Sequence record: HQ630627.1
Origin: Pseudomonas phage PhiPA3
DNA: 64,000 nt
Reading direction: 5' to 3' (one strand)
Made by a program: the position numbers and the translations under genes. This document shows, piece after piece, positions 5,104-58,655 of this stretch (position 1 is the first letter of the stretch; each line of letters begins with the position of its first letter). The notes beneath the pieces are model-generated. The model was not told the DNA's origin and made no database searches. It worked only from the letters and a program-made list of their open reading frames with translations.

Positions 5104-5131
5104 CCCCTCCTTCGGGAGGGGCCTTATGCTG
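5104..5131 (+). terminator. GC hairpin (GCCCCTCC-TTCG-GGAGGGGC) followed by TTATGCTG box; terminator and/or late-promoter unit
   Basis: perfect inverted repeat then conserved TTATGC box about 35 nt upstream of next start codon; motif recurs >=15 times in window. Confidence 0.6.
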
Positions 5132-5164
5132 CAATCCTATGTTACGTAATTGATGGTGAATACC

Positions 5165-6700
5165 ATGTTTGAATTATTGCTAGGTGCTAGATTAGCTAGA
5201 CCTCCATTGGTTGATAACCGCTTTATCGGAGAAGTAAGTCCTTCTTCGTTTATTACCGCAAGCGCTTTGGCTAGTGCAGTCGGCCTATTAGCTGGAGCAA
5301 ACGTTAATGATGCTATCCCATGGTTACAATTTCGTTTTAATGGCAAGGACTATTACACCCCCAAAAAAGCCATTCGACACACAATTAGCTGGGAAGCATT
5401 AAATTCGGCGAGTCTGATCACTGGGAATAAACTAACCAAAATTGCCTCTAAGTTTTATTCGGTTAGGTTGTTTAAAGGAGCTAGCGTTAATCCGGTAACG
5501 GTTACGAGTGGTTATGACCTGGTACAGTTCCAAGGTTCAGAATGGAACAAATTCATGTACCATATCCACGGCCCTAGCTTCGCTAACCCAAGCAACACAA
5601 TGGCATCTGAACCCCTTGCTGGTGAGTGGGCTCAATACAGTGATGCTGACTTGGGTTTAGGGTATCCCGCTGATGGTGGCGCCGCTACATGGACACAAGA
5701 ACTCTACACCAAATCTGGTGATGCTACTAAGTATGCCGTGTGGCGCGGATACAATGGTGTGTCTTACTGTGGTTATGACGTATCTAACCTGGCGAGTCAG
5801 AGTTATGCTGGATGGCGCCCATTGTTGGAGCAAGTGGCCGATACATTCAAACCGACTGTCAAGACCATCGCTAGTGAAGCGATGGGTAATGGTTGCTGGT
5901 TTGTTTGGAACAACGACATTTATTTCGCTGGCGGTAACGGGTCTCAACAAACCGCAAGGATTATAAAAGTAGATAAGACAACCGGTGCCAGGACGGCTGT
6001 TCCTGTTGGCACGGGGTCTACACCGGCAGCGACATGGTACTGGTCATGTGCAGTTATTGGAGATAAGGTATATTTCTTTGGCGGTCAATCAGCTGCTGGT
6101 TCTGCAAACGCAGCTCAAAATGCCTGTGTGTTCGATATGGTGACACAGGTATGGACCACCCTTGCAAATCTTCCTGAAAAATTATACAGGCCCCGTGTAG
6201 CGGCGATTGGTACTAAACTCTACATCTACGGTGGTGGACTGGTTACTCCTCGCGACACACTGTACGAATATGATCCACAAGGTAACACCTACGTCAAGAA
6301 AGCTCATGGCGGTGAAAACGCATCGGATACAGCTGGACTAGCTGTGACCTCAGACGGTACTTACCTGTATGCCTGTGGTGGTTACTATAATGCCATGTCT
6401 AACAAGCTGAAGCGTTATAACCCAACATCTAATACCTGGGATGTCCTCCAAGCAGCACCTGTAGCCAACTACGAGAATGGTATTGGAATAGCTGGTGACA
6501 TTCTGTTGTCGGTAGGTGGTACTGGGACCAATATGGGACAAAAGGTATACATGTACCTGTTCTCTAAAAATGCGTGGGTGGATACAGGTATAACCCTACC
6601 ACTTTCTTATGCGACGGCGTATTCAACTGTTCTGAATATAGACGGAAAATGGTACGCATTCTCCCAGCAGAATGCATCCCTTGGAGAAATTGGTGGCTGA
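5165..6700 (+). CDS. fibre/adhesin-like protein: conserved N-terminal module + Kelch beta-propeller
   Basis: start moved to ATG 5165 (MFELLLG) by paralogy with 8375 gene (identical 15-nt atgtttgaattattg); N-module ends ...YAGWRPLLEQV; C-terminal Kelch blades IYFAGGNG, VYFFGGQS, LYIYGGGL, LYACGGYY, LLSVGGTG. Confidence 0.6.
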   Translation: MFELLLGARLARPPLVDNRFIGEVSPSSFITASALASAVGLLAGANVNDAIPWLQFRFNGKDYYTPKKAIRHTISWEALNSASLITGNKLTKIASKFYSVRLFKGASVNPVTVTSGYDLVQFQGSEWNKFMYHIHGPSFANPSNTMASEPLAGEWAQYSDADLGLGYPADGGAATWTQELYTKSGDATKYAVWRGYNGVSYCGYDVSNLASQSYAGWRPLLEQVADTFKPTVKTIASEAMGNGCWFVWNNDIYFAGGNGSQQTARIIKVDKTTGARTAVPVGTGSTPAATWYWSCAVIGDKVYFFGGQSAAGSANAAQNACVFDMVTQVWTTLANLPEKLYRPRVAAIGTKLYIYGGGLVTPRDTLYEYDPQGNTYVKKAHGGENASDTAGLAVTSDGTYLYACGGYYNAMSNKLKRYNPTSNTWDVLQAAPVANYENGIGIAGDILLSVGGTGTNMGQKVYMYLFSKNAWVDTGITLPLSYATAYSTVLNIDGKWYAFSQQNASLGEIGG

Positions 6701-6701
6701 T

Positions 6702-7337: not shown

Positions 7338-7347
7338 GGAGAGAGAA

Positions 7348-8019
7348 ATGTTGGAACTAATGCTCTCTTTGGGCAAACCTATATCTATCGTTGAAGGCGA
7401 CAACGGCCCAGGTCCCACTACTTTAGTCGCTGGTACTTCCCTTGCGGGGTATTTTGGTCTGGTACCCTCCGCCAGTTTAATTGGTGGTGATGCGCTTGCT
7501 ACACTGACTGGCATGACTGCTGGTACTTTACAGAACGACACTACCCCGTGGATGAAATTTGCATACAACAACAAAGCATTGTTCATTGCACAGAAGTCTA
7601 TTCGGTATGGCATGTCGTGGGACAGCTTAAACGCAGCAGCGGTGGCTACACCAGGTAAGACGATCACCATTGGTAACTATCGCTATAAGTGTCGTCTGCT
7701 GTTGATTGCCCCGGCTGACTCAGGTAACTCTAACTCCACGTTACCTGGACGGGAATGGTCTAACCTTATTTACAACGTCTGTACGGCTGGACCCTCTACC
7801 AAGGGTTGGGCCGCATTTACTACTGCCGACCTCGGTATTGGCGGTAGCTTCAATGGTCGATATAACTGGGGTCAAGAATCCGGTACAGCAACGTCAGGTG
7901 CTGGTCGAGCAGGCGTGGGTTACACCACAATTAACAAACTCGACTTCAATGCGTCTGGTAATACCGGTACGCACATGGGATGGAGACCATGCTTGGAACT
8001 GGTTGGTAAAATAGCATAA
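7348..8019 (+). CDS. fibre/adhesin-like paralog (N-terminal module only)
   Basis: RBS GAGGAGAGAGAAATG; MLELMLSLG...GPGPTTLVAGT...HMGWRPCLELVG; paralogous to 5165, 6702 and 8375 genes. Confidence 0.6.
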   Translation: MLELMLSLGKPISIVEGDNGPGPTTLVAGTSLAGYFGLVPSASLIGGDALATLTGMTAGTLQNDTTPWMKFAYNNKALFIAQKSIRYGMSWDSLNAAAVATPGKTITIGNYRYKCRLLLIAPADSGNSNSTLPGREWSNLIYNVCTAGPSTKGWAAFTTADLGIGGSFNGRYNWGQESGTATSGAGRAGVGYTTINKLDFNASGNTGTHMGWRPCLELVGKIA

Positions 8020-8273
8020 CGACATAAAGCCCTCCCCAAAGGGAGGGCCATTATGCTGTCTAGAAGTAACGATCGGTCGTCATGAGTAAATTCAATATTC
8101 ATATTAAGAATCTTAGAGACATCATCACTTAATGATCTAAAATTATTAATATCTATTTTTTGATTATCTAGTTTATCCCGAATTTTTATTAGATGTTCTT
8201 CTATCAATGGACCTAAGTCCCGCTTGACATTAACATCCAATACCTCATTAGAGATTTTTATCGTATGTGGCAT
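7920..8273 (-). CDS. doubtful small ORF in AT-rich island
   Basis: ATG at 8273 inside AT-rich segment, but reading frame runs through the 8028-8057 hairpin and into the 3' end of the 7348 gene; only the first ~65 codons look gene-like. Confidence 0.2.
   Translation of the reverse strand: MPHTIKISNEVLDVNVKRDLGPLIEEHLIKIRDKLDNQKIDINNFRSLSDDVSKILNMNIEFTHDDRSLLLDSIMALPLGRALCRYAILPTSSKHGLHPMCVPVLPDALKSSLLIVV
8028..8057 (+). terminator. hairpin GCCCTCCCC-AAA-GGGAGGGC + ATTATGCTG box
   Basis: same hairpin+TTATGC architecture as 5104. Confidence 0.55.
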
Positions 8274-8374
8274 TTTATATCTCTACTAGTATTAATTTGC
8301 AATCATAAAGATATGGCTGTGTTGTATAGAATTCAATCTTACGCATGACGTATTATAAAAGAGAGGCACACAAA

Positions 8375-9889: not shown

Positions 9890-9897
9890 CGAAATAA

Positions 9898-9925
9898 ACC
9901 CTCCCATTATGGGAGGGTTTTATGT
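9898..9925 (+). terminator. hairpin ACCCTCCC-ATTA-TGGGAGGGT + TTTATGTC; sits between convergent genes (bidirectional terminator candidate)
   Basis: inverted repeat directly after 9889 stop and 12 nt from stop of minus-strand 9937 gene. Confidence 0.55.
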
Positions 9926-9936
9926 CAATGATTATT

Positions 9937-10541: not shown

Positions 10542-10885
10542 CCATACCTTCGATAGAGTTCGTTATGCTCTACCCGCGTTTACACGCTGCTCCAGGCTTT
10601 CCCTGGATGTGGAGACTATATCACCATCCTTCTCTTTCGAGGATCGGATGCTTCCTATTTCCACCCACTTGGATGTACTCCCTTACGGGATAGTCGTTGA
10701 ACGTTCTTCTCAGAGAGAAGCTTCGCTGCGGATTGCCCAATACATGTGTCTTTTACCATACCCAGTGAGTTAGACTGGCCATCTAGTATATCGCTATCTA
10801 GACTTGGTGCACATGTCTCTAAGGATTTCCCCGTCAATTAAAGAAGTTTGCATCAAGTGTTCCAACTTGATGGGACTAATATTTA
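10542..10885 (-). mobile_element. group I intron (ORF-less) in DNA polymerase gene
   Basis: minus-strand RNA has R-like GUUCAACGACUAUCC and S-like GAUAUAGUCUCC elements (P7 GACUAU/AUAGUC); exon ends in U, intron ends GGUAUGG (G); exon stop codon UAA is first intron triplet; splicing gives ADLD|IVSTYP. Confidence 0.7.
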
Positions 10886-12709
10886 ATCCAGATCAGCCAC
10901 GTGCGTAAACAAAAGTGTGTTGTAGTCGGGTAAGTCTTTGACACACTTCAGTCCGTTGGGTCCAGCCATGTACGAAGGCAGGGTAACGATCCAGGAATCG
11001 TGGCCAACAACATAGCTATCAAGATCATGAACCATCTGATCAGAGCTTGAACCAATTACACAGGGTTCAGGCCGCTTGAGATACCAGAAGTGCATGTCGT
11101 CGCACAGACGTTTCGGGTTAGAACTAAAGTTCTTGTAGTCCGAAGATTTCGAGAACAGAGTAATAGACGAAGCCAGGTCATTAATCTTTTCATCGAGTTG
11201 TTCCAGTCGAATGGAGTCGATGATGTTGTAAAGACCGTACCGGACTTTGTGGTTCTTCTGCATCTCAATGTGCCATTCGATACCTCCCAAGTAGTCAGTT
11301 TCAGCGAACTTCAGTTTACCAAAGTTCAGGCGCATCCCCACACCAAACCCAGGATGTACGTTGACACCCCAGACCAGCGAATCAACTTCTTCCCAGTGTT
11401 CTTCTCGTTCGACCTTTTCCTCACGGCGGTACTCGACTTGAACCCTCGGATCTTCCGGATCAATACCTTCTTGTAGCAGCTTCTCCTGAGCTGCGGTATA
11501 AACAGGGACATCGTTGTACGTGACGTCTACCTTATCCTTGCTCGGATCGTTGACCGACCAATATGGGTGGGCACCACTACGTTCAGCGATGGCTTTACCC
11601 ATCTTCTTCATCCAGCTGTTGAATTCCTCTTCAGTCTGAACAGTTTCCTGTTCATCCATGGAGAGTTCTTTCTTCAGGATGGCATCGAGGGCATAACTGG
11701 ATTCTTTACCTTTGGCCAATCGAGTTACACGATACGTGGCCATGGAGTCAATGCACTGGAACGACGCAGGTGCAGTAATCCAATGCCATTGGTCTTCTGG
11801 ACCTTTGGACTTGGTTACACCCGATGCCGTAGTGGTCATCGCTTGGTCTTGACGGTAATGGAAATACCGATAGTTCGGAGGAACTTGAGGATCACTGAAT
11901 ACGTTCTTCGGGTCAATGCCGTAGTTTTCCAGTGTGGTCAAGATTCGACTCATGTCGAAGTCGATATTCCAGAACGCGAAGAAGTCAGGCTTCCACTTGT
12001 GCAAACGACGCATGCAGTTGATGATGATATCAGCAGGCGAATTTACTACCTCAATTTCAATATTGAGATTACGTGCTTTTTTCAGAGTCACCAATTCTGG
12101 AATGCGTTCTAATTCGGCGAAGGTTTCGGCAACTGGGTCATCCAGATCTTTCACCCAATGCTTCAGATATGCCAGATACACGTTTTCCTTGTGTGTAACC
12201 GACATGCAGATAATCTGTCCCTCGTTCTCTTCTTCGTACACGTTGGTCTCGATGTCGCCACCGGCTACCGTGTTACGGGAAATAAGTTCCGGGTATTGCT
12301 CCCGGTAGTCGTTTTTGAGACAGCAGACTGAGCTTACGTCCGAACCGTACAGATAAGGGCTACGGCTCAATTGGCGCATACGTGGGTTAGGACCCATTGA
12401 GTAATCGCCTAACAACTTAGCGATCATACGTGGCATCTCCAGTTGAGTACAGGTGTACTTCTGGAGGTTACGTTCAAATTCGTAATCTTTCTTTTCTTTA
12501 TGATTTTGTCTTCCCTTCTGTGTAATCCAGAAGGGACGTTTGTAGTCTTCAACGACCCGAATACGTGGGATACGACGTTTGTCTTTAAGGTGAATGATTT
12601 CTTTGACTACGTGTGCATCATGCCTACGGCCAGTTTGGTCAGTCACATAAGTGATGTGTTTGGCTTCAATACCAACAACATCTTCTTTTGTAAATTGTAG
12701 GTCGGACAT
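10886..12709 (-). CDS. family-B-like DNA polymerase, exon 1 (3'-5' exonuclease domain to first half of motif A)
   Basis: Exo I GGDIETN, Exo II FAFWNIDFDMSRIL, Exo III YGLYNIIDSIRLEQLDEKI (like T4 YNIIDVESVQAIDKI); ends ...HVADLD. Confidence 0.65.
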
Positions 12710-16072: not shown

Positions 16073-16081
16073 CGACATATT

Positions 16082-16112
16082 GCCCGCCCCGAAAGGAGCG
16101 GGCTTTATGCTG
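16082..16112 (+). terminator. hairpin GCCCGCCCC-GAAA-GGAGCGGGC + TTTATGCTG between convergent genes
   Basis: hairpin+TTATGC motif; no plus-strand gene downstream (next gene is minus strand). Confidence 0.55.
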
Positions 16113-19022
16113 TTAACTCAATACCTCATGCTTGAGGAAGTTGAATTGGATGTCATCTTCCACAGTGAGTTCTTGGTTGGGGAGTACCACTAGTTTCTTA
16201 CGGATAGCTAGACGAACTGCATCATCTTCCACTGTAAGAATGCTGTAGTTAGCCGAACCACCAAGACCACTGAACTCGATTGCCATGACTTGATCCCCAG
16301 AGGTTTCTTCAAGCTTAGCCACAATATCCGATACCGATACAGTTTTGCGAACGATTAGGTCGTTAGTAATGATCTTACCGTTGCTGATATAGCTCGGACG
16401 AATTGCAGAGTTCTTGTACTCGGACGGTGTCAGGTACATAGTGATCGCAAAGGCTTGGTCCACTGGAATGGTTGCCTTTTGACCCTCACGTACTGTAACA
16501 ACCGTATCACCGTAAGTCGTAGTCGGATACAAGAACAACTCACACTTCTCCAGCAATTGCCGGTTCAGTAGATCAATGTCTGTTTGCAACCAACCCACGA
16601 ATTCCATAGGGATCTGAGAACGATAGTTGGAGGCAGCTTGTTCCGTTGCAAAGTAGAACAGCCCATCCACCATTAGCAGTGTGATTTCTCGCAACAGTTT
16701 ACGAGGTGCAACCAGAATGGGGTTACCGTCTTTATCAAGCTTGACATCCCCTTTCTGATGCTTCTTCACTTGGTTTCCTTGGGCATCCAGAACCGGGTCA
16801 CCTTTCTTGTGAAGAATCTCGTAATCATAACCACCACCCGGCAAAGGCGTGATGATAACGTTACCATTACTGTCAGTAGCGTACTCGTTTTCTTCGTAGA
16901 ACGCCATGACATCGTATTCCCAATGCTGATAAGACTCATCTCCCAACACCGTACGACTACGACGCCAGATGCTGGTCATGTCGTAACCCAGTACGGTTTG
17001 CAGTCGTTCACGAGTTACCACCATATACTGCTGAGGCAGCAGATGACTTTGTACTAGGTCATCGAGTTCATTTGGTTGATAACCGGGAGTGATGGTATTC
17101 ACCACTAGGATGGAAACATCGAGGTTGCAATTCAAGGGCGTATAGAACCGATTCTGCGTTACGTCGAACATGGAGAGGTTGGTCGTATGCAGATGATGTA
17201 GTGAATCAATATCGTAGTTCGTATTGATGTCGAAGTAATACACCCTTTCGTTATCTTCCTTACCCATGTAGATGCCATTGACCGAAGCCCAGCGTGATTC
17301 ATTTGGCGGTTGATAACCGATCTGCAAAACGACTTGATCATCGTTTAGCTGCTTGAACTGATCACCAGTTTCCAGTTTGACAGTAATGCGATAACCTGCA
17401 TCAGTGCGAACAATATTGAACGAGTCAATCGTTGCTTGTAGGTTAGCTGTATCGTTCTCACCCACGAAGACCTTTTGTGTGATCGTCGGGTTATCCAAGT
17501 AGTAAGGACGCATCTCAAAGTTATTCGAGCTAGCATCCAGTACGTTGTGGAACGGTGAGTACATATACCGCCCAGCATTAACTTCCCGTGCAATGGTTTC
17601 AGCATTGCTGTTAACCAAACGGTCAATCTCAGCATCAGCTACCGTGGTAACCATCCCATTATAGAACCGGAACAGCATCGACGGTTTGATCGTAATACGG
17701 CTGTCATTATCAGCAACGTGTTCGGAACCCGCCAGTGAATCCATATCCAGTTTTAACTGAGACATGGCAACGCCTGCGCCTGAGACGATATCCAAACCAG
17801 CCGGTACACCCAGTCGACGAGAAGCCAAAAATTGTCGATTGGTAATGTTATCGATGTTTGATACCAGATCGTAACCACGACGAGTCAGTGTGGATTCCAG
17901 CTGCACGTTCGTAATAGGGATTTGGTTGTCGCCAAGTGTATTATTGATGACTTGATCACGCAGAGTAATAAAGTCAATCGACGCTGCACCACCATCTACC
18001 TTCTGTCGACTCATCGACTGAATCAAACCGAACGTATTCAATGGAGCAACGTACGTGGGGTCGTCGTCAATTGAATTGAACGTGTGCTTAAACTGATCAA
18101 TTTTGTACGCGGCCAGATCTCGCTCCAATCGACCCTTGGTTGTGTAGATATCCACACGAATGTCGCCAGTGGCCATCGCCATGTTGGTATAGACCGTTGG
18201 AATACTCACAGAGAGTTTTCCTGGCAGAACTTTGAATACTACAGTCAGGTTCAGTGGGTCATACACCAGATCGCTGTGAGTTGTCCGTACCTCTTCCCAA
18301 ACATCATCTTGGTTACGACTGATGTAAGCCCGCGCGTAATAGAAATTATCGGTGTAGGTGTACGAGGTTTGGAACAGCGAACTGGGGTTGAGCGTATCCG
18401 TGAAAGTTGTGACTTTGAAGTTCTGTACCGGAATATACAACGACATGACTTTACGTCCGTCGATGATCACCATTTCCCAATCAACCACGTTGGTACTCAG
18501 CGTAGCCACTGGTGAGATCGAGTCCTGTACATATTCAGCTGCGACACCACCGTGTCGCATTACCCGCAGTTCGATCGGGTACTGCATGGTAAAGGTAAGG
18601 TCAGCTACTGTGAACTCAGTTAAACGAGGAATAACCAGTTTCTTCAGGCCCTGGTCTCCATACGGGATAGCCTTAGCTAGAACTTCATCGTAAGCCAACA
18701 GTAGTTGCCAAGTAGTCGATGATGGTTCTGAGAATCGACCCAGGTAATCGTCATCCGACATGTGTCGATAGAGTTCGTCATTGGTGATGGCTAACCGGGG
18801 ATAGAGCTGACGCATCAACCCTTCCGTTTCGTTGATCGCCATACAGGTCTCTTGTACACTGCATTCAGCTGCGTATACAAATGGCATAGTTGCATCAGGG
18901 ATATCAAACGCCGCAGTCCCATTTGGATTCAATTGTGAATCCATCTCCTGAAGGACCAGTTGCTGCATCAATGCTGGATTACGACGTACATTGTACAGCC
19001 GTTCTCTGAAAGAAGAAGTCAC
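16113..19022 (-). CDS. large virion structural protein (969 aa), function unknown
   Basis: long ORF with late-gene codon usage inside structural block. Confidence 0.5.
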   Translation of the reverse strand: MTSSFRERLYNVRRNPALMQQLVLQEMDSQLNPNGTAAFDIPDATMPFVYAAECSVQETCMAINETEGLMRQLYPRLAITNDELYRHMSDDDYLGRFSEPSSTTWQLLLAYDEVLAKAIPYGDQGLKKLVIPRLTEFTVADLTFTMQYPIELRVMRHGGVAAEYVQDSISPVATLSTNVVDWEMVIIDGRKVMSLYIPVQNFKVTTFTDTLNPSSLFQTSYTYTDNFYYARAYISRNQDDVWEEVRTTHSDLVYDPLNLTVVFKVLPGKLSVSIPTVYTNMAMATGDIRVDIYTTKGRLERDLAAYKIDQFKHTFNSIDDDPTYVAPLNTFGLIQSMSRQKVDGGAASIDFITLRDQVINNTLGDNQIPITNVQLESTLTRRGYDLVSNIDNITNRQFLASRRLGVPAGLDIVSGAGVAMSQLKLDMDSLAGSEHVADNDSRITIKPSMLFRFYNGMVTTVADAEIDRLVNSNAETIAREVNAGRYMYSPFHNVLDASSNNFEMRPYYLDNPTITQKVFVGENDTANLQATIDSFNIVRTDAGYRITVKLETGDQFKQLNDDQVVLQIGYQPPNESRWASVNGIYMGKEDNERVYYFDINTNYDIDSLHHLHTTNLSMFDVTQNRFYTPLNCNLDVSILVVNTITPGYQPNELDDLVQSHLLPQQYMVVTRERLQTVLGYDMTSIWRRSRTVLGDESYQHWEYDVMAFYEENEYATDSNGNVIITPLPGGGYDYEILHKKGDPVLDAQGNQVKKHQKGDVKLDKDGNPILVAPRKLLREITLLMVDGLFYFATEQAASNYRSQIPMEFVGWLQTDIDLLNRQLLEKCELFLYPTTTYGDTVVTVREGQKATIPVDQAFAITMYLTPSEYKNSAIRPSYISNGKIITNDLIVRKTVSVSDIVAKLEETSGDQVMAIEFSGLGGSANYSILTVEDDAVRLAIRKKLVVLPNQELTVEDDIQFNFLKHEVLS

Positions 19023-24063: not shown

Positions 24064-24070
24064 CATAAAC

Positions 24071-24099
24071 GGGAACCGTATGGTTCCCTTTATGCTATG
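24071..24099 (+). terminator. hairpin GGGAACC-GTAT-GGTTCCC + TTTATGCTATG
   Basis: hairpin+TTATGC ~30 nt before next start. Confidence 0.55.
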
Positions 24100-24126
24100 T
24101 TATTCAGATACTCATGAGTACTAGAC

Positions 24127-25092: not shown

Positions 25093-25097
25093 AATGA

Positions 25098-25126
25098 AGG
25101 GGGCTTCGGCTCCCTTTATGCTAACA
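25098..25126 (+). terminator. hairpin AGGGGGC-TTCG-GCTCCCT + TTTATGCTAAC
   Basis: hairpin+TTATGC. Confidence 0.55.
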
Positions 25127-26259: not shown

Positions 26260-26267
26260 TCATAAAC

Positions 26268-26296
26268 GGGAACCTTCGGGTTCCCTTTATGCTATG
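26268..26296 (+). terminator. hairpin GGGAACC-TTCG-GGTTCCC + TTTATGCTATG
   Basis: near-identical to 24071 unit. Confidence 0.55.
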
Positions 26297-26326
26297 TTAA
26301 CATACACCTTGCAAGGGTTTAAACAA

Positions 26327-27607: not shown

Positions 27608-27614
27608 ACATATT

Positions 27615-27643
27615 GCCTCCCTTCGGGGAGGCTTTATGCCGTC
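27615..27643 (+). terminator. hairpin GCCTCCC-TTCG-GGGAGGC + TTTATGCCGTC
   Basis: hairpin+TTATGC. Confidence 0.55.
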
Positions 27644-27675
27644 AATCCTATGTTTAACACAATAGAGTCTTACTC

Positions 27676-30403: not shown

Positions 30404-30411
30404 TCATAACG

Positions 30412-30444
30412 ACGGGGCTCTTCGGAGTCCCGTCTTATGCTAGG
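30412..30444 (+). terminator. hairpin ACGGGGCTC-TTCG-GAGTCCCGT + CTTATGCTAGG
   Basis: hairpin+TTATGC. Confidence 0.55.
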
Positions 30445-34191: not shown

Positions 34192-34202
34192 GACAACATA
34201 AT

Positions 34203-34234
34203 AGCCTCTCCGTAATGGAGAGGCTATTATGCCG
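34203..34234 (+). terminator. hairpin AGCCTCTCC-GTAA-TGGAGAGGCT + ATTATGCCGG
   Basis: hairpin+TTATGC; ATG of the box equals track start 34229 and is probably not a real start. Confidence 0.55.
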
Positions 34235-34267
34235 GATCTTATGATCTTAGAACTTGAGGTATATCTC

Positions 34268-37932: not shown

Positions 37933-39307
37933 TAAAACGCTACTCATGCGTGAAGTGAATAATGTTATTCAGTCTGGTGATGGACATTACAACTTCCGCA
38001 TGGAGATAAAGATCCTTGCTAATAAGAAATGGATCACTCCAGTTCGGTTGGATCATTATCGCCTAGTGCGTGACTATTCATCTGGACAAGTGGGTGATGA
38101 TCGTACAGTAGAGTTCCTGATGAACTACGGGGACTTTGCCTACGACATCCTACCTTATCGTGATAACCTCATTGTGGAGTACACTGAAGTTCCGTTACGG
38201 GAAGTAAATTCTGCGCGGGACTGGGACAAGCGTTCGACTACGAAACGCTATCGGGGTATCCTCAACATGAGTGGTCAATCAAACCCTGCGTTATCTTCTA
38301 AGAACTCATTGCTGCAATCACGTGAAGCATTGAATCAGATCTCGATGATCCCCATTCAGATGCAGCTCGTAGATGAATTGACTTACCGTGTTATGATGGC
38401 GTCGTATGGCAACACATTTGTGAACATGACGACTAAAGACATGGTAATCGCATCACATCACGAGGTCTTTGCGGCATTGGGTGGCACGGATGATCAACGT
38501 TTATTGGGTTGGGATATTGCCGATGGCTGGAATCCAGATGTTCATTACCAGATCGGTTTGCCAGATGGTATCCGCTTAGCTGATATCCCTCGATTTCTAC
38601 AGAACGATGAAGGTGGAATTTACCCCACTGGGATGGGTCGATATATTCAGAATCAGATCTTCTACATGTATCCGTTGTTTGATACAACTAGATTCAATAA
38701 GAAGACTAGGGTTCTGAACCTGATCAATATTCCCAGTGACCGTTACGAAGGCGCTGAGAAGACGTATAAGAGCACTGACCGACATGTGACGGTGATAGCC
38801 ACCGGTAATGCATCTTCGCTCGATGACGGGCTTGCTACGGTCTTACAACAGGGTAATGGTGTTCGCTTTGGTAATGCTAACAACCTGTTGACAGATCAAG
38901 CTGTCACCAAAGACAACAAGATGTTAATGGACCGGGCATCTAACTTGTATGAAGTCAATATTGGAAATCTCCAAACTGGCTTTAACAACACCCGATGGGC
39001 AAATGAGCGGGTAACCGCCAACCCTTATAAACAGTATTCGATTATGGCACAACGCCAAGGCCAGCAATTGGATCTGGAATGGGTTAACGGTAATCCCGAT
39101 GAATTGTACCCTGGAATGCCAGTGAAGTTTTTTACCATATCTGGCGACACTGTAAAAATTTACCACGGTACCCTATTAGGTGTAGGTGAACAACGAACCG
39201 CTTCTGATGCGTCTCCAGTAGTCAATCGGCATGTCAGTAAGTGTCAGTTGTCCGTCTTTGTCAACCGGTTTGAAATCGTAGATGACACTATAAGCCCCAC
39301 CCCTTAA
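37922..39307 (+). CDS. hypothetical virion protein
   Basis: 461-codon ORF overlapping upstream stop. Confidence 0.5.
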   Translation: MSVDKTLLMREVNNVIQSGDGHYNFRMEIKILANKKWITPVRLDHYRLVRDYSSGQVGDDRTVEFLMNYGDFAYDILPYRDNLIVEYTEVPLREVNSARDWDKRSTTKRYRGILNMSGQSNPALSSKNSLLQSREALNQISMIPIQMQLVDELTYRVMMASYGNTFVNMTTKDMVIASHHEVFAALGGTDDQRLLGWDIADGWNPDVHYQIGLPDGIRLADIPRFLQNDEGGIYPTGMGRYIQNQIFYMYPLFDTTRFNKKTRVLNLINIPSDRYEGAEKTYKSTDRHVTVIATGNASSLDDGLATVLQQGNGVRFGNANNLLTDQAVTKDNKMLMDRASNLYEVNIGNLQTGFNNTRWANERVTANPYKQYSIMAQRQGQQLDLEWVNGNPDELYPGMPVKFFTISGDTVKIYHGTLLGVGEQRTASDASPVVNRHVSKCQLSVFVNRFEIVDDTISPTP

Positions 39308-39330
39308 GTGGGGTGGGTTTATACCAGGTG
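39293..39330 (+). terminator. hairpin CCCACCCC-TTAAGT-GGGGTGGG + TTTATACC (variant box)
   Basis: hairpin+box; box has TTATAC instead of TTATGC. Confidence 0.5.
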
Positions 39331-40650: not shown

Positions 40651-40661
40651 TGCAACATAAT

Positions 40662-40693
40662 GCCCCACCTAACGGGTGGGGATTATGCCGCTA
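40662..40693 (+). terminator. hairpin GCCCCACC-TAAC-GGGTGGGG + ATTATGCCGCT
   Basis: last plus-strand hairpin+TTATGC unit before the early cluster. Confidence 0.55.
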
Positions 40694-41336: not shown

Positions 41337-41492
41337 ATGAAACAAGCTCTCATCATCGCTGGTATCGTTACCTCCATCGGCGCTGCTGCCTTCGCCGGCT
41401 ACAAGTACTTCACCGGCAACGACGCCGACTCGGCGGGCGACACCCCGGCAGCTCCCGAAGCCGCCACTGAAGAAACCCCCGCTACTGAATAA
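41337..41492 (+). CDS. small TM protein (51 aa)
   Basis: hand-called MKQALIIAGIVTSIGAAAFAGYKYF...; RBS AAAAGGAAAC. Confidence 0.4.
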   Translation: MKQALIIAGIVTSIGAAAFAGYKYFTGNDADSAGDTPAAPEAATEETPATE

Positions 41493-41844: not shown

Positions 41845-41862
41845 GGGGGCCTTCGGGCCCCC
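41845..41862 (+). terminator. hairpin GGGGGCC-TTCG-GGCCCCC (no TTATGC box)
   Basis: GC hairpin directly after stop, followed by second early box. Confidence 0.5.
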
Positions 41863-41892
41863 ATCTCCTTTGTAATGTATCTTTTCTGAAGG

Positions 41893-44658: not shown

Positions 44659-44725
44659 AGAGTAATATACGTGTACTCGTATCCTAAACAGATACGAGTG
44701 CATTATTTTATTCCGTGAGGTAGGT

Positions 44726-47054: not shown

Positions 47055-47090
47055 ACCCAGGGGCTCTTTGGAGCCCCATCTTTTTTTATT
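47055..47090 (+). terminator. canonical intrinsic terminator CCCAGGGGCTC-TTTG-GAGCCCCATC + T7
   Basis: GC hairpin then TTTTTTTATTT; no TTATGC box. Confidence 0.65.
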
Positions 47091-49072: not shown

Positions 49073-49209
49073 TGGACGAGCGCTACCAGGAATACCGCAC
49101 CATGTTCACCGACCCGTTCGCGGGTCAAACTCGTAACCAACGGAGGGTTGCCAAGAAGCTTGCCGAGAAGGAAACGCGCAAGCTCCTCCAGCGCACCCGC
49201 CAGAAGTAA
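49072..49209 (+). CDS. small basic protein (45 aa)
   Basis: hand-called MDERYQEYRTMFTDPFAGQTRNQRRVAKKLAEKETRKLLQRTRQK; ATG overlaps upstream TGA. Confidence 0.35.
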   Translation: MDERYQEYRTMFTDPFAGQTRNQRRVAKKLAEKETRKLLQRTRQK

Positions 49210-49213
49210 TGAC

Positions 49214-49240
49214 ATAAAGCCCCTCCCTTCGGGGAGGGGT
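49214..49240 (+). terminator. hairpin AGCCCCTCCC-TTCG-GGGAGGGGT (no TTATGC box)
   Basis: GC hairpin after stop followed by TTCTATTTAATTTTT. Confidence 0.55.
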
Positions 49241-49270
49241 GTTCTATTTAATTTTTAACAGGGAAATCCA

Positions 49271-50452: not shown

Positions 50453-50537
50453 GGGAATTCGACGCTGATGGTTCTCGCGTTATTCATGGACGTCCTGCGT
50501 TAATTCGGTCCGGTTTCACCGGGTCTGTAACCTCCAA

Positions 50538-50582
50538 CTGGGAGCCCTTCGGGGCTCCCTTTTATTTCCTTCTTTTTTTTTT
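50538..50582 (+). terminator. intrinsic terminator GGGAGCCC-TTCG-GGGCTCCC + T-rich tract
   Basis: GC hairpin followed by TTTTATTTCCTTCTTTTTTTTTT. Confidence 0.65.
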
Positions 50583-50606
50583 GTTTTAGGCTAAGACGAC
50601 ATAAAG

Positions 50607-50645
50607 GATAGGGAGAAGCGGTACGTCATGTCCGCTTCTCCCTAT
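50607..50645. repeat. perfect 14-bp inverted repeat ATAGGGAGAAGCGG-(11 nt)-CCGCTTCTCCCTAT in non-coding region
   Basis: read directly; lies in 0.8-kb gene-free zone. Confidence 0.6.
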
Positions 50646-51227
50646 TGCAGCTCCCACGGCCTGATAGGAACCACATAATAACCGGCATCAGATATCTTGA
50701 GCTTCATTTGTGGATGCTCCTCTTGAGCTTAGCATTTTTCACTTCCAGATCTCCAATAACCACAATTGTTCGGCTTACAGGTTTCCAGTCAGGTAGATTA
50801 CCAGCAGTAGGGTATCTAACTTAAAGGAAATCGCAGCTTTGTCTTCACGTAGTATTACTACAGCTGAGTATATTTTTTAATCAATGTCTATTGAGTATTG
50901 TTTTAATAGAGGTTTTTGAAGATTATACTGGGGTTAGTTATGATTCTGTAGACGAAGGAAAAGGATCCTCCGGAGGAGGGGGGTTTTATTTAATAATAAA
51001 CAGAGTTACGTTAGTAACTCATTCCTTATTCTTCTCTTATAAAGTCCTTAGTCTGTTAAACTAAAATCCTTATTCCTAAGCGTAAGCTAAATATACTACA
51101 AGCCTCCCCTCAAAGGGAGGCGTTTATGTTGTATTATATTTTTGTTTAAGTTATTATAAATGTCGACGCTAAGGCCTCTATTTTGCGTTTCTATGCATTA
51201 TCTCCATTAAAGGGTACCGATGGCCAT

Positions 51228-51258
51228 TACGGCATAAAGCTCCCCGTAGGGAGCCGTA
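51228..51258 (-). terminator. minus-strand hairpin GGCTCCC-TACG-GGGAGC + TTTATGCCGTAA
   Basis: reverse complement of 51225-51260; directly downstream of minus-strand 51261 gene. Confidence 0.5.
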
Positions 51259-51260
51259 TG

Positions 51261-51671
51261 TTAAACTACACCAAATACTAGGTCGTAACCACGTTTAGCA
51301 CCATTGCTGGTAATAGCACGGGCATCACTGAGGGTGTAGGACTGTGGAGTGGTAGCGTCTTCGTTAGTAGCGAAGTCGATAATGTAGCCAGCTTGGAACG
51401 CATGTCCCCAACCACTACGAACTTCACCGTTTATTGCAGTACCGAAAACTTTCTGCCATTCTTCACTGGTAACGCGCATGACGTCCAGTAGAACCCATTG
51501 ACGAGCTACTACGAGAATATTGATCGGCTCAGCCTTAATGAACGCTTTGGCAATAACGGTACGCAGTTCTTCCAGCATCGCTTTAACACGATCACGGTAT
51601 TGTTGACGTTCTTTATCTACTTTAGCCATCTGGTCCAGTTCATCAACACTGGGGTATACGTCACAGAGCAT
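51261..51671 (-). CDS. hypothetical protein
   Basis: track ORF, co-oriented with replication module. Confidence 0.5.
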   Translation of the reverse strand: MLCDVYPSVDELDQMAKVDKERQQYRDRVKAMLEELRTVIAKAFIKAEPINILVVARQWVLLDVMRVTSEEWQKVFGTAINGEVRSGWGHAFQAGYIIDFATNEDATTPQSYTLSDARAITSNGAKRGYDLVFGVV

Positions 51672-52147: not shown

Positions 52148-52180
52148 GGGATTGAATAAAGCCTCCCCGAAGGGAGGCCC
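52148..52180 (-). terminator. minus-strand hairpin GGGCCTCCC-TTCG-GGGAGGC + TTTATTC
   Basis: reverse complement of 52150-52180; directly after helicase exon-2 stop. Confidence 0.5.
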
Positions 52181-52185
52181 TACTA

Positions 52186-52542
52186 TTAATTAGACCAAGC
52201 GTCATCGTCCATACCACCGATAATGCTACCCGGAACAATTTTGAGCGAGTAGTCTTCTTCTTTATCGATGTCCCATGGGATAATGCCACACGAACTGAAC
52301 GGCAGAAGAACATATTGGTCTTCTTCAGACGTCACAGTGTTCCGGTGCTTACCCCGTTGGATGGCGAGATACGATTTGCCTTTCACTTTGATGATGTGGT
52401 GGAACAGTTCTAGGTCAGGTTCCTGACCCAGTCGACGGCAACCGTCATAATAGCCTTTGTTGGCTACAACCTTCACGAAGTCTTCGGTGTTCTCCCGCAT
52501 GAGCTGGAGGGCATCAGAGCCGAGCTGGTGAGGACTGATAAA
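52186..52542 (-). CDS. DnaB-family replicative helicase, exon 2 (C-terminal 118 aa)
   Basis: FISPHQLGS aligns with DnaB VVALSQLNR (H3); EPDLELFHHII...LAIQRGKHRNTVT aligns with EQDADLIMFIYRDE...IIGKQRNGPIGTV (H4). Confidence 0.6.
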   Translation of the reverse strand, partial: FISPHQLGSDALQLMRENTEDFVKVVANKGYYDGCRRLGQEPDLELFHHIIKVKGKSYLAIQRGKHRNTVTSEEDQYVLLPFSSCGIIPWDIDKEEDYSLKIVPGSIIGGMDDDAWSN

Positions 52543-54344
52543 CGTGATACCTCTCGATGTGTTCAGTAAGGTTCGTTACACCTTACCCGCGCCATTATGC
52601 GCAGCTCCAGGCTTTCCCTGGATGTCCAGACTATATCTTCACCCTCGGTTTCCCGATAGGGTGCTTCCCACTTCGAGTTCACTTGAACTCTACTCCCCAC
52701 TACGGGATAGTCGTTGAACCTTCTCCGTGCCTTTCGGTTTAGGAGCTTGGCTGCTGATTGTCCAATTTCTACACTTGTTAAACCTTCATAGACTCCTTTC
52801 GGGTCTATTGTGGTAGTAGAACTCTGAAGGAGTTTCCAGCAATTCAGGAAGTACTCGTAAAGCATTACGGCTTTACGGCCCTAAATAAGTAACCCTTAGT
52901 TTCCTTATTAGTGCTCAGATTTAATCGAATTGTTTTCTCGTTTAGACCGGTTAGACGAGCTGCTTCTTTAATAGAAGCAACCTCAGTTATAACACCGGTA
53001 TTCACGCAGGTAACCAGAATGGCTTTAGCTTGTATTGGCTTGTCGATATACGCCGAATTATCGTACTTATTCGAATCCGTGCGGATTATCCAACGCTTAG
53101 CGTAGATGTATTTCAATCCACGACTTAGGTCGACTTGCAACTCCGCTTTAGATCTCCCACAGTGATTCGCTATCTCCTGTAAAGTAGCGAAGACATGGAG
53201 AGTATTCGTTTCTAGATCACTTACGTAGTAAGGTCCAGACAGATTATTCCTACTGTAATGAATTTCACAGTGCGGAACATGCTCTTTAAAACGAATGACG
53301 AAGTTGTCGATGGTTTCGAACCGATATGGTATTCCATACGCTGTCGCAATCTGTTTTACACGATTGAACTTCCGGCTCTGTCCAGTCCGCGTATCGAAAA
53401 CCGTTATGGTGAATATCGATTTACCAACTTTAAAATCGTTTATATCAACTGTTTCGTAATGCCATGGTGTTAAGTCATCCATGGTTTTTATTTCATACCG
53501 CTTGCCCCAAAGATAACCAGGCAGTTTAGTTTGAAAACTTACAGTTGAGTTACCTACACCAATACCGAGACTTCTGTTCATCTCGCTAATGGACCTGTAC
53601 GCAGTAACTTCTCCAGTTAGGACATCCCTAACCTTCGTACCAATAGGTGTTCCATTAAGACCGACTTCCAATGCATGCTGTGCATTTTCCGAAGCATCAC
53701 ACCATTCTAGGTTAGATACGTCGTTATTGGTCTTAACTCCATCAATATGGTTAACGAGCGGTCTTTTTACGAAACATTCGTTTGGAACCCATGCCAAAGC
53801 TACTAACCGATGAAATTTTACGGTACGATTGCAATTTCGATCGGGTACTCTGATATAACACGTGTAGTAACCTTTATCATCGAGTTTCACATCCGTGATA
53901 ATCGAATTCGTTTTGGTATCTAGCACATGCCCATTGGTATCAATAGCGTATCTTGGGTAGTTTGGTATATGCCTGAACCCATCGCAGTAGTAAATCGGTT
54001 CTGCGAATGTCATTATCTTTCCGCACCTTATTCTCAAAAGCGTGTTGTCCACGTCTTTGAAAATTATTTTGTCAAGGTGTTGGGATAGATTGGGAATGTC
54101 TTCACATTCGTACCAAGCAAGTAGACTGAGCCACTCGACTGTGACTGTATACTTTTTACCAAATAGAACGATATTAACTAATCCATTCTCTTCCGGTAGG
54201 GAAACATGTTTCCCCAATCGGTCAAATATTTGACCGTTTAAATCAATTCGGTATTCTGAACTACCAGGAATCTTTTTAATCACAGCCACACCCCAAGTTA
54301 AAAAATCAACTATAGGATATCTGTAATTAAAGGTAGGTAATTTA
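52543..54344 (-). mobile_element. group I intron in DnaB-like helicase gene, carrying HNH homing-endonuclease ORF
   Basis: core 52543-52870 homologous to intron at 10542-10885 (GUUCAACGACUAUCCCGUA, GAUAUAGUCU, CAGGGAAAGCCUGGAGC, GUAACGAAC); 5' exon ends CCU| with UAA as first intron triplet (same as intron 1); 3' end ...GGUAUCACG|; spliced protein ...NYTTP|FISPHQLGS aligns with DnaB ELNVPVVALSQLNR. Confidence 0.65.
52865..54289 (-). CDS. intron-encoded HNH homing endonuclease
   Basis: HRLVALAWVPN...VNHIDGVKTNNDVSNLEWCDASENAQHA (HNH H-N-H); GTG start in track; lies 5' of intron core. Confidence 0.7.
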   Translation of the reverse strand: MAVIKKIPGSSEYRIDLNGQIFDRLGKHVSLPEENGLVNIVLFGKKYTVTVEWLSLLAWYECEDIPNLSQHLDKIIFKDVDNTLLRIRCGKIMTFAEPIYYCDGFRHIPNYPRYAIDTNGHVLDTKTNSIITDVKLDDKGYYTCYIRVPDRNCNRTVKFHRLVALAWVPNECFVKRPLVNHIDGVKTNNDVSNLEWCDASENAQHALEVGLNGTPIGTKVRDVLTGEVTAYRSISEMNRSLGIGVGNSTVSFQTKLPGYLWGKRYEIKTMDDLTPWHYETVDINDFKVGKSIFTITVFDTRTGQSRKFNRVKQIATAYGIPYRFETIDNFVIRFKEHVPHCEIHYSRNNLSGPYYVSDLETNTLHVFATLQEIANHCGRSKAELQVDLSRGLKYIYAKRWIIRTDSNKYDNSAYIDKPIQAKAILVTCVNTGVITEVASIKEAARLTGLNEKTIRLNLSTNKETKGYLFRAVKP

Positions 54345-55511: not shown

Positions 55512-55645
55512 TTACAGCATCCTTGAGTGTGAATTTTTTAATGATGTACCGTGTACCATTTTGTTTCTAGGTAATTTGTCGCTAAAAATAATGCATATTC
55601 CTATGTAGACTGTTTTTAAGCCTTGGTCCACTATAGGTCTTACCG

Positions 55646-56188: not shown

Positions 56189-56265
56189 CATCCGGATCAT
56201 TCCTAGCCTTGTAATTGAAAGATATTTGCTAAACCAATACCCATCCTGCGTAGGAAACAACAGAA

Positions 56266-58509
56266 ATGAAACAACTCAAAGACCTGTTCAAGGTTAATGG
56301 TGATTCCAGCCGTACTACCTTTGGCCTGGAAGAATTCGTTGGTCACCTGACCAAAGAAGTAGACTTCGCTGACAGCATCTTCGACGCTGGCACTGGCCTG
56401 GTCAAGTCGATCGGTAACGAAGCTTTCGGTGAAAATGCTGAAGAGCAATCCGCTGCTTCTAGCCTCTACAAGCGCCTGCAAAGCATGGCCAGCAACTACG
56501 GCTTCGAAGCCTTCCAAGCTGACCCGAGTCTGAGCCAAGCTCAGATCCGCGAACAAATCCGTGTTACTGGCAACCAGCTCGCTGCCGGTACCCTCGCTGC
56601 CATCGCTTGCACCGACCAGACCGCTTACATCAAAGCTCTGCGTAAGGTCTCGGTTGAAAGCGTTTCCAACGACAAGAACGTCGTTAACGTTCAACATCGC
56701 TTCGACGGTCCTGCTGGTTCCCTGCAAGTCTTCGAAAACGGCGTTGGCCTGGAAAACTACAACGAGAAATCTCAGCGCGACTTCCGCGTTGTGACCGTTG
56801 GCTACAACCTGGCTGCTTCCCGTCAGGACGAGTTCGCTGAGCGCATCTACCCGACCACCGTTATCAACCCGATCGAGGGTGGCGTGGTTCAGGTTCTGCC
56901 GTACATCGCCGTGATGAAAGACGTTTATCACGCTGTATCGGGCCAGAAGCTTCAGAACGAAGAAGTCAACATGGTAGAAGCCTACCGTGATCCGTCCATC
57001 CTGGACGACGAGTGCACCGCTCTGATCCCGTCGATCGATCCGGCCGGCACCAACCTGAAGTTCTTCATCGACCCGACTCTGGTTGCTCCGACCACCGTCG
57101 TTAACGAACAGAACATGTCCGTCGAGACTGCTCCGCTGAAGCCGGGCATCAAGATCGATCTGATCGGTAACTCCAACGCTAGCCTGCTGATCAACAAAGG
57201 CATGCTGGACATTTCCGACACCATCGACCCCGCTGGTCGTCTGAAAGCTCTGTACGTTAAGTTCCAGGGCAAAGTGATCAAGTTCGCTGTGGATCGCCTG
57301 CCGCGTGCTGTGTTCCAACCGGATCTGGTTGGTGATACCCGTGGTGCCAAGATCGACTTCTGGTCTGACGACCTGACTGTTAGCGCCATCACCCGTACCG
57401 TTGACCAAACTCAAACCGCAGCAATGCAAGAGCTGGAACAGCGTAAGTGGGTTCTGCGTCTGAGCATGCAGTTCAGCGGTCACATCTCCACCAGCCGTGG
57501 CGACAGCCGCTTCACCGTTGGCGAAGTTTCTGTTGATCGCATCACCGACGAAGACCGTCGCAATGTTTCCCTGGAAACTGGCGCTGGTAAGACTCTGGTT
57601 GACAGCATCACTGATCTGGAGATCGTAGGTTTCGACCTGGATACTCGCTTCACCAACACCAACCGTCGTCAGCGTGGCCACCTGCTGCAAACTCGTGCCC
57701 TGCAATTCCGTCACCCGATCCCCATGCACGCTCCGGTTACTCTGCCGCTGAGCACCATGGACGAAGAAGGTCCGGGCGAAGTTGTGAAGGCACTGACCGT
57801 CAACACCAACATCCGTAACAGCAACAACGCTGTTAAACGTCTGCTGAACTACCTGGCTCAGCTGAAAGAAGTTACTGCCAATGGTTTCGACCGTCCGCAG
57901 TTCGGTGCTGTTGAAGGCGCTCTGTCGGCCGTAATGCGTCCGACCTATCGTTACAAAGAGCTGCACTTGCCCGACGTGATCGACACCCTGAAGTCGCAAG
58001 ACCGCTGGGAAGACGTCTGCTCGGCAATCCTGAACGCTGTTAAAGGTGAACTGTTCCCGGCTTACCGTGAATCGAACATCGAAGCTGCGTTCCGCGTGAT
58101 CTCGGGTAACCAAGACGAGCGTCCGATGTTCCTGTTCTGCTCGGACAAAGAGATCGCCAACTACCTGATGACCAAAGGTGATGACCGTACCCTCGGTGCT
58201 TACCTGGAATACGATCTGGTATCGACCAACAACGAACTGTTCGACAGCAAGCTGGTGGTGATCCCGACTCGTAAGAACCCGCAAGAGAACGATATCCTCT
58301 CCTTCGGTCAGTTCTTCTACGTTTCCACCGTCATCGCTGACCTGCCGATCACCCGTGGTGGTCAGCAAGTTACTCGCGAAATCGCGGCCATCCCGTTCAA
58401 CCTGCACGTGAACAACATTCCGTTCGCACTTGAGTTCAAGATCACTGGCTTCCAAGAAGTGATGGGCGAATCTCAGTGGAACAAGACTGTTGCTAGCCTG
58501 AAGCCTTGA
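56266..58509 (+). CDS. putative major capsid protein (747 aa)
   Basis: RBS GGAAACAACAGAAATG; strongest codon bias in window (CTG/GGT/CGT/AAC) suggesting very high expression; length equals the 747 aa recalled for the phiKZ capsid protein; minus-strand 750-aa ORF is its shadow. Confidence 0.55.
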   Translation: MKQLKDLFKVNGDSSRTTFGLEEFVGHLTKEVDFADSIFDAGTGLVKSIGNEAFGENAEEQSAASSLYKRLQSMASNYGFEAFQADPSLSQAQIREQIRVTGNQLAAGTLAAIACTDQTAYIKALRKVSVESVSNDKNVVNVQHRFDGPAGSLQVFENGVGLENYNEKSQRDFRVVTVGYNLAASRQDEFAERIYPTTVINPIEGGVVQVLPYIAVMKDVYHAVSGQKLQNEEVNMVEAYRDPSILDDECTALIPSIDPAGTNLKFFIDPTLVAPTTVVNEQNMSVETAPLKPGIKIDLIGNSNASLLINKGMLDISDTIDPAGRLKALYVKFQGKVIKFAVDRLPRAVFQPDLVGDTRGAKIDFWSDDLTVSAITRTVDQTQTAAMQELEQRKWVLRLSMQFSGHISTSRGDSRFTVGEVSVDRITDEDRRNVSLETGAGKTLVDSITDLEIVGFDLDTRFTNTNRRQRGHLLQTRALQFRHPIPMHAPVTLPLSTMDEEGPGEVVKALTVNTNIRNSNNAVKRLLNYLAQLKEVTANGFDRPQFGAVEGALSAVMRPTYRYKELHLPDVIDTLKSQDRWEDVCSAILNAVKGELFPAYRESNIEAAFRVISGNQDERPMFLFCSDKEIANYLMTKGDDRTLGAYLEYDLVSTNNELFDSKLVVIPTRKNPQENDILSFGQFFYVSTVIADLPITRGGQQVTREIAAIPFNLHVNNIPFALEFKITGFQEVMGESQWNKTVASLKP

Positions 58510-58622
58510 GCTGGAAAGGGAACACTCCGATACATGGAGAATGGCAACGTCCGTTATCTTGAAGACGGAGTGGCCCGCCGCTTAGACACTCCCGTGATCT
58601 AACGCGGTAAAAGAACGCATAG

Positions 58623-58655
58623 GCCCGCCCCGAAAGGAGCGGGCTTTATGCCGTC
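58623..58655 (+). terminator. hairpin GCCCGCCCC-GAAA-GGAGCGGGC + TTTATGCCGTC
   Basis: same hairpin as 16082 unit. Confidence 0.55.

Follow-up and report, generated by a model that had tools for sequence, protein, structure and literature searches.

What is the role of the GC-rich hairpin followed by a short (T)TTATGC(T/C) box that recurs behind genes of Pseudomonas phage PhiPA3? The question is raised by a 64,000-nt stretch of its genome (record HQ630627.1), referred to here as the window, in which a sequence-only reading had listed 15 copies of this unit and considered them as fused terminator/late-promoter modules or as RNA processing sites. With a probability of about 80%, the unit is the intrinsic terminator known from phages phiKZ and 201phi2-1, usually working in both directions. 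This kind of terminator has already been described; it is newly seen in this phage. By analogy with these relatives, the PhiPA3 copies would terminate transcription, and the release mechanism proposed below is drawn from the same comparison.

The recurrence itself is well founded. All 15 listed sites carry a GC-rich stem-loop and then, within 0-3 nt, (T)TTATGC or a variant of it (TTTATGTC, TTTATACC or TTTATTC), with an exact TATG in 13 copies and K/A variants in the other two. The 5' arm is pyrimidine-rich in 11 of the 15 copies, and the fold energies range from -17 to -26 kcal/mol (z = -3 to -8 versus shuffles). Over the window, 28 perfect GC hairpins are found, versus 5.0 expected from 100 dinucleotide shuffles, and TTATG stands behind 16 hairpin strand-sides, versus 0.03 expected. 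Intergenic DNA represents 6.6% of the window, and TTATGC reaches a density of 3.06 per kb in it versus 0.35 per kb in coding sequence (about 9-fold). An equal frequency in coding sequence, the result that was to disqualify the box, is thus not what is observed. Rfam has no family for the hairpin-box module.

The copies had been described as located 3-15 nt after a stop codon. This is right for most plus-strand copies, with a gap of 5-11 nt between stop and hairpin at 11 of them (0-1 nt at both minus-strand copies), but not for 58623, located 113 nt past the annotated capsid stop, nor for 39293, in which the stop codon is in the loop. The gap between the capsid stop and 58623 is occupied by a conserved in-frame extension. 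The next start had been placed 25-60 nt after the box; measured from the box G, it lies at 12-38 nt at most modules and at 83 nt at 58623. The next called start after 8028 is 290 nt off, and the one after 40662 is at 165 nt in our own open reading frame (ORF) calls, or at about 100 nt if the ATG just past the early promoter is considered. The ATG included in the box generates false ORF starts at 34229 and 30437. Besides the listed copies, the window includes a further one at 51102 as well as opposite-strand boxes at 5122, 8048, 24088, 26285, 27632, 40681 and 49239 on the minus strand and at 51239 on the plus strand.

The identity of the unit comes from relatives in which RNA ends have been mapped. 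In phiKZ, the motif BCCYCCCCHWWDGGGRRGGBYTTATKYYGT was found at 61 termination sites by ONT-cappable-seq (Putzeys et al. 2024, PMC10914365), and six sites of the window match this rigid consensus with at most three mismatches versus 0 expected. In 201phi2-1, motif A (n = 59) is the phiKZ terminator motif, and a motif B, which lengthens the hairpin, is associated with stronger termination (PMC11512511). These 201phi2-1 elements were predicted as intrinsic terminators, and eight 3' ends all behaved as terminators in a two-reporter trap in uninfected Pseudomonas chlororaphis, i.e., with the host RNA polymerase (RNAP) (PMC11512511). When the eight coordinates quoted in the text of that study are placed on the 201phi2-1 genome, all of them fall on hairpin + TATG modules, seven at the second nucleotide after TATG (with a TATA variant at 230,027) and the eighth at the first. 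The 3' terminus of the RNA reads stem-UUUAUGYY there and stands 8 nt past the stem, and G-T follows in the sequence. As the mapped ends stand 1-2 nt past TATG, the box is a part of the tail of the terminated RNA and not a downstream signal. Three of these ends are located between convergent genes and three just upstream of early promoters. The view that the unit works as an end signal, including between convergent genes as at 9898 and 16082, is supported. The terminator of the PhiPA3 capsid gene (58618..58654) has its orthologue in 201phi2-1 at the validated 3' end 132,419. Orthologous module positions are also kept in phiKZ and PA1C, where the stems have diverged yet are still complementary and the tail is constant.

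The PhiPA3 units share with the phiKZ terminator motif the stem consensus, the tail, the placement after genes and the phage group, with syntenic copies, e.g., behind the capsid gene, but their stem lengths are more variable, so that just the six sites mentioned above fit the rigid consensus. Moreover, the published phiKZ description stresses TTAT, whereas the constant core across phages is TATG-YY. Hairpin plus tail is also the composition of motif A of 201phi2-1. Motif B is probably the counterpart of the (ACRR)CATAA arm found ahead of the PhiPA3 hairpins, although a longer stem finds no covariation here. The units further resemble the bacterial bidirectional terminators (A-tract/hairpin/U-tract) by their complementary flanking tails, their presence on both strands, a release about 8 nt past the stem and their functioning with the host RNAP, whereas their tail is a defined word, UUUAUGYY followed by GU, and not a U-run.

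The unit is longer than first stated. Indeed, the (A/G)CATA(A) found upstream of most hairpins is the reverse complement of (T)TATG(T/C). Strong hairpins were collected from the window and from the syntenic stretches of phiKZ, PA1C, a Psa21-like contig, 201phi2-1, Noxifer and Ralstonia phage RP31, i.e., seven phages. In this set, 111 strand-sides have TATG 0-5 nt (mode 2) past the stem, the next four positions being Y (88%), Y (99%), G (58%) and T (61%), and 41 of 69 hairpins display TATG on both strands. The full unit is quasi-palindromic and reads ACRR-CATA-NN-stem-loop-stem-NN-TATG-YY-GT. The stable UUCG, UACG and GNRA loops are confined to the sense strand, and the sense direction is therefore the primary one.

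A lower helix, in which CAUAA pairs with UUAUG, is predicted in 12 of the 15 minimum-energy folds. An RNA stem extended by this pairing was considered as the reason for the upstream arm and rejected, three tests having revealed no covariation: native flank pairs are less stable than module-swapped flanks (-6.4 versus -7.6 kcal/mol, z = +4.3), spacers are complementary at just 2/25 positions, and a contingency table of NATA against TATN displays no upstream compensation for the variants of G. The apparent compensatory cases of the window, 39293 and 52148, are probably due to chance. Since covariation is not seen, each side is better considered as a separate signal serving its own strand, as known from bacterial two-way terminators, and the lower helix may still contribute according to the predicted folds. 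The count of covariation within the stem (100% paired) was circular, the hairpins having been chosen as perfect stems, and it was not used as evidence.

The PHROG scans of the window identified a split RNAP beta subunit, internal head proteins, a phiKZ-type major head protein and a gp123-like subunit of the non-virion RNAP (nvRNAP). The capsid protein is 82% identical to those of Pseudomonas phages PA1C, PS119XW and phiHQ and 69% identical to phiKZ gp120, and the gene order of the window matches phiKZ gp80-gp124. A near-DNA search of a phage collection with the window gave a single 45-nt match, and a capsid-protein scan of viral contigs led to one locus. These findings bear out the view that this DNA belongs to a phiKZ-type phage with a split nvRNAP, a chimallivirus equipped with two multisubunit RNAPs.

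Early promoters of sequence TATATTAC are present at 40734, 41894 and 58682. As had been noticed, the hairpins of the early cluster at 41845, 47060, 49220 and 50540 have no plus-strand box, 49220 having one on the minus strand. With the hairpin at 41479 added, an exact TATG is found on the sense strand of 0/5 early hairpins, which have T-rich tails, versus 13/15 elsewhere (p = 0.0014), so that the box does avoid the sense strand of the early cluster. A hand tally pooled over five phages gives 4/21 early versus 24/29 late (p = 9e-6). A perfect box occurs on the antisense strand of several early hairpins (49220; 201phi2-1 L005:9959). No discussion of this difference between early and late terminator tails was found in the accessible literature. 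It is the best argument for a link between the TATG tail and the nvRNAP.

Two observations concern the early cluster itself. Its tails often begin with (C)AT(C/T)T, as in ATCTCCTTTG, ATCTTTTTTT, ATTTATTTTC, CATTTATTCA and CATCTCAATG. Such tails were seen at 41863-41872 and 47078-47090 and in the early clusters of phiKZ, PA1C, 201phi2-1 and Noxifer, and they may reflect a preference specific to the virion RNAP (vRNAP). On the minus strand, the exact early-promoter word also occurs at 44662-44669, within the plus-strand early cluster and beside a hairpin at 44672-44703, where it may mark an antisense early start or match by chance.

The TATG of the box, in which the sequence-only reading had seen a resemblance to phiKZ-type late promoters, is identical to the core of nvRNAP late promoters. 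At these promoters, transcription starts at the G, and TATG is necessary but not sufficient (PMC4666361). The beta-like subunit gp123 binds the non-template bases T-3 A-2 T-1 G+1, and within the promoter complex the stretch from -11 to about -30 is B-form DNA, the strands separating immediately downstream of it (PMC12809450). The orthologue of promoter P119L, located at 55601 (ATATTCCTATGTAGAC), is also found in PA1C, phiKZ, 201phi2-1, Psa21 and Noxifer; in these six phages it reads ATAT-NNN-TATG-TAGA and never carries a hairpin. The word CTATGT is present in 16 copies in the window, of which the seven intergenic ones all face a gene (179 on the minus strand, 235, 5137, 24095, 26292, 27648 and 55601). 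Four of them (5137, 24095, 26292 and 27648) stand 0-13 nt past the box of a terminator. Thus, the idea of a fused terminator and late promoter is right in that a late-promoter-like element lies directly behind four modules, but the promoter is the second, separate CTATGT and not the box. In the overlapping form TTTATGCTATGT, which is kept in phiKZ and PA1C, the end of one RNA and the start of the next would be 3 nt apart. The box and the phiKZ late promoter share their four-nucleotide core; the latter differs by AT-rich upstream DNA, no hairpin and T-W-A instead of Y-Y-G-T after the G, whereas in the modules 0-3 nt separate the TATG of the box from the GC stem ahead of it.

The module extends beyond Pseudomonas phages, as it is present in Ralstonia phage RP31, whose capsid protein is 28% identical, and in Escherichia coli phage Goslar. 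In Salmonella phage SPN3US, no module was found in the 42 kb examined, where U-run terminators are used instead. Conservation of the gp123 pocket residues is seen in the Pseudomonas group, is partial in RP31 and Goslar and reaches its minimum in SPN3US. The box is kept in RP31 and Goslar despite a diverged pocket and is absent from the 42 kb of SPN3US, the phage with the most diverged pocket; a co-evolution of the TATG pocket of gp123 with the box is suggested at most by this comparison.

As an intrinsic terminator, the module would work as follows. The nascent RNA would fold into the GC stem, often closed by UUCG or GNRA on the sense strand. The polymerase would then transcribe the tail UU-UAUG-YY, standing in for a U-tract, and RNA release would follow at the second Y, some 8 nt past the stem and ahead of the conserved G-T. 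The upstream (ACRR)CATAA would represent the same tail on the other strand, stopping opposite-strand transcription, and could pair with UUAUG and lengthen the stem, as the A-tract and U-tract do in bacterial two-way terminators. The modules would insulate the middle and late genes transcribed by the nvRNAP, whereas the hairpins that end the early units within 40.7-50.6 kb have T-rich tails. Some modules would have a separate late promoter (C-TATG-T, start at G) 0-13 nt behind them, letting transcripts end and begin within a few bases. Several points weigh against this reading. The positions of ONT 3' ends are accurate to about 2 nt. The genes at 25144, 30452 and 39337 have no upstream TATG except the box, so that read-through or initiation at the box would be needed. 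The flank-swap and contingency tests gave the extended stem no covariation. Finally, a plain U-rich tail needs no conservation of TATG-YY-GT from Pseudomonas to Ralstonia and E. coli phages, and a function beyond weakening the hybrid is therefore probable for the tail.

Four other explanations were weighed against an intrinsic terminator. It is possible, if rather unlikely, that the hairpin ends the upstream RNA and that the TATG of the box itself is the late promoter, with a start at its G; this could work by immediate re-initiation because the sigma-like subunit is integral to the enzyme. The box does hold the complete TATG needed for nvRNAP initiation (PMC4666361), the distance of 12-38 nt from its G to the next start applies to most co-directional modules and includes a ribosome-binding site (RBS), modules 25098, 30412 and 39293 have no other TATG ahead of the gene, and early units are devoid of a sense-strand box. 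Nevertheless, boxes occur with the same degree of conservation at convergent junctions and on antisense strands, where there is no gene to serve, and phiKZ is reported to have just four antisense RNAs with a defined start (PMC10914365). A GC stem from about 3 nt upstream of TATG would also cover the region that must melt, judging from the promoter complex (PMC12809450), and the published searches for late-promoter motifs did not report a hairpin (PMC11512511, PMC10914365). Moreover, four modules possess a second and better-matching CTATGT, and the bona fide late promoter at 55601 has no hairpin. A stop specific to the nvRNAP is unlikely as well: the TATG of the tail would be caught on the non-template strand by the late-promoter pocket of the gp123 beta-lobe, and the captured enzyme would pause after another 2 nt, with Y at the RNA end and G as the next base, during hairpin formation. 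One four-nucleotide word would then serve for start and stop, possibly with an immediate restart, and the early units, transcribed by the vRNAP, would use a T-rich tail. The 3' ends 2 nt past the G and ahead of a conserved G fit the Y-1/G+1 elemental pause rule of cellular RNAPs. The non-template TATG is what gp123 binds (PMC12809450), the distribution of the box is class-specific, and SPN3US combines the lack of a box with the most divergent pocket residues. On the other side, the modules also stop the host RNAP in uninfected cells (PMC11512511), conserved variants (TTATK) have T or A in place of the G of the box, the transcribing complex reportedly has an incomplete pocket (PMC12809450), RP31 and Goslar retain the box with a diverged pocket, and sense-strand TATG is not depleted in genes.

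Cleavage of the AU-rich tail by a host or phage endonuclease beside a protective hairpin, which would make the mapped 3' ends, is very improbable. Such a tail is AU-rich, single-stranded and adjoins a stable hairpin, and ONT 3' ends do not tell termination from processing, but the elements of the relatives are predicted intrinsic terminators and act as strong terminators on the host RNAP in the two-reporter trap in uninfected cells (PMC11512511), so that the processing site put forward as an alternative by the sequence-only reading is not supported. The 3' end 8 nt past the stem has the geometry of intrinsic termination, and the two-strand symmetry would have no obvious role in processing. Hardly credible at all is an element acting on the DNA level without a role in transcription, either a palindromic protein-binding site or a mobile palindrome resembling REP or MITE elements. 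The unit does form a quasi-palindrome of up to 50 bp, and hairpin and box are identical over 29 nt at 16082 and 58623; however, the variable stem length sets the half-sites 16-34 bp apart, the placement is strictly just behind stop codons, stable tetraloops occur on the sense strand only, and RNA ends are mapped at modules in the relative 201phi2-1. The intrinsic terminator is thus the preferred reading, and the features of the window are collected under it in Table 1.

Table 1. Putative terminator modules, early-cluster hairpins and late-promoter-like elements of the PhiPA3 window.
Feature	Coordinates	Strand	Remarks
Terminator module	5097..5132	+	CATA-ct-GCCCCTCC-UUCG-GGAGGGGC-ct-TATGCTGC; predicted RNA 3' end ~5130; minus-strand TATG at 5122
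Late-promoter-like CTATGT(TA)	5137..5142	+	5 nt past box, 16 nt ahead of 5153 start
Terminator module, box on both strands	8023..8059	+	Minus-strand tail TTTATGTCGT, 1 mismatch to phiKZ consensus
Two-way terminator, convergent genes	9893..9928	.	Plus tail TTTTATGTCAA; minus tail TTTATTTCGT (K = T variant)
Two-way terminator, convergent genes	16076..16113	.	29-nt hairpin + box same as 58623
Terminator module overlapping late promoter	24064..24100	+	TTTATGCTATGTTA; arrangement also in phiKZ L001:14299 and PA1C L002:28432
Terminator module without upstream CATA	25094..25124	+	Sole TATG ahead of internal-head-protein gene at 25144
Terminator module overlapping late promoter	26261..26297	+	TTTATGCTATGTTA; paralogous to 24064
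Terminator module + late-promoter-like CTATGT	27609..27653	+	Box TTTATGCCGT; CTATGT at 27648
Terminator module	30405..30443	+	Box G 12 nt ahead of RBS-preceded start 30452
Terminator module	34197..34235	+	Perfect 15-bp stem including CATAAT/ATTATG
Variant module	39289..39327	+	TTTATACC; stop codon of gene 37922-39307 within loop
Last box-type terminator ahead of early cluster	40656..40691	+	Followed by early promoter TATATTAC at 40734
Extra copy, absent from the initial list	51102..51132	+	Hairpin + GTTTATGTTGT
Minus-strand module	51229..51268	-	UACG loop, TTTATGCCGT; ends 55511-51261 gene block
Minus-strand variant module	52151..52190	-	TTTATTCAAT, behind 52186-52500; PA1C has same variant
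Capsid-gene terminator	58618..58654	+	GCATAG-hairpin-TTTATGCCGT; followed by early promoter at 58682
Early-cluster hairpin without box	41845..41872	+	Tail AUCUCCUUUG
Early-cluster hairpin	47060..47090	+	Canonical U-run tail
Early-cluster hairpin	49209..49250	.	Plus tail T-rich without box; minus tail CTTTATGTCAT (box)
Early-cluster end hairpin	50540..50570	+	U-run tail
Orthologue of phiKZ late promoter P119L	55601..55610	+	CTATGTAGAC; no hairpin; reference for true late promoters
Divergent late-promoter-like pair CTATGTTA	174..240	.	179 (minus), 235 (plus)

Some modules display features of their own. The identical 29 nt of 16082-16110 and 58623-58651 include a shared internal mismatch and the GAAA loop, and the PA1C orthologues of these two terminators differ from each other; judged from the sequences, this suggests copying or gene conversion between terminators. 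A comparable near-identical pair is found in 201phi2-1 at 179,552 and 84,756. In the variant module at 39289 (39296-39317), the stop codon inside the loop is that of a gp101-like virion gene, so that the 5' stem arm is coding, and the arrangement is kept in three phages (also PA1C L002:44080-44101 and phiKZ L001:26413-26432). Behind the terminator at 8028, an AT-rich insertion of about 285 nt (8060-8344), absent from PA1C, has no plus-strand ORF and overlaps the minus-strand ORF 7920-8273.

Other observations concern the genes of the window. The capsid gene ends with TGA followed by an in-frame extension of about 26-30 codons (58507-58602), encoding AGKGTLRYMENGNVRYLEDGVARRLDTPVI up to a stop codon. 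The extension also occurs in phiKZ (L001:40510-40590), PA1C (L003:11187-11270), 201phi2-1 (L005:22230-22316), Noxifer and the Psa21-like phage. Its amino-acid sequence is conserved, and third codon positions account for about half of the nucleotide differences among the six Pseudomonas phages. In Goslar and RP31, TGA and an open in-frame stretch are likewise found behind the capsid gene, and SPN3US has TAA TAA. This looks like a programmed TGA read-through that would yield a C-extended capsid protein; no report of read-through at the capsid TGA was found, and residue 747 is the last one in the phiKZ capsid model.

Two full-length group I introns (RF00028, 72 and 83 bits) are located on the minus strand at 10590-10895 and 52607-52900. 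They interrupt the DNA polymerase gene and a DnaB-like helicase gene and have the segment TCCAGGCTTTCCCTGGATGT in common. No ORF of at least 60 amino acids lies wholly within either intron in the ORF calls. Between the early cluster and the minus-strand block, 808 nt (50453-51260) are without a confident gene and hold several hairpins as well as a long imperfect palindrome (about 50600-50640). A comparable gene-free gap of about 690 nt is present in phiKZ (L001:34629-35315). The PhiPA3 stretch could be a non-coding RNA.

The recurrent unit is an ordinary one for phiKZ-type phages. With its box-type terminators, the CTATGT late promoters and the TATATTAC early promoters, the transcription units of this phage can be drawn from the sequence. 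For specialists, the useful points are the tail core TATG-YY with the RNA end 2 nt past the G, the two-strand mirror, the reach to Ralstonia and E. coli chimalliviruses and the avoidance of the motif by early units. If the tail were indeed read by gp123, these modules would be polymerase-specific terminators, which would bear on the role of TATG recognition outside promoters.

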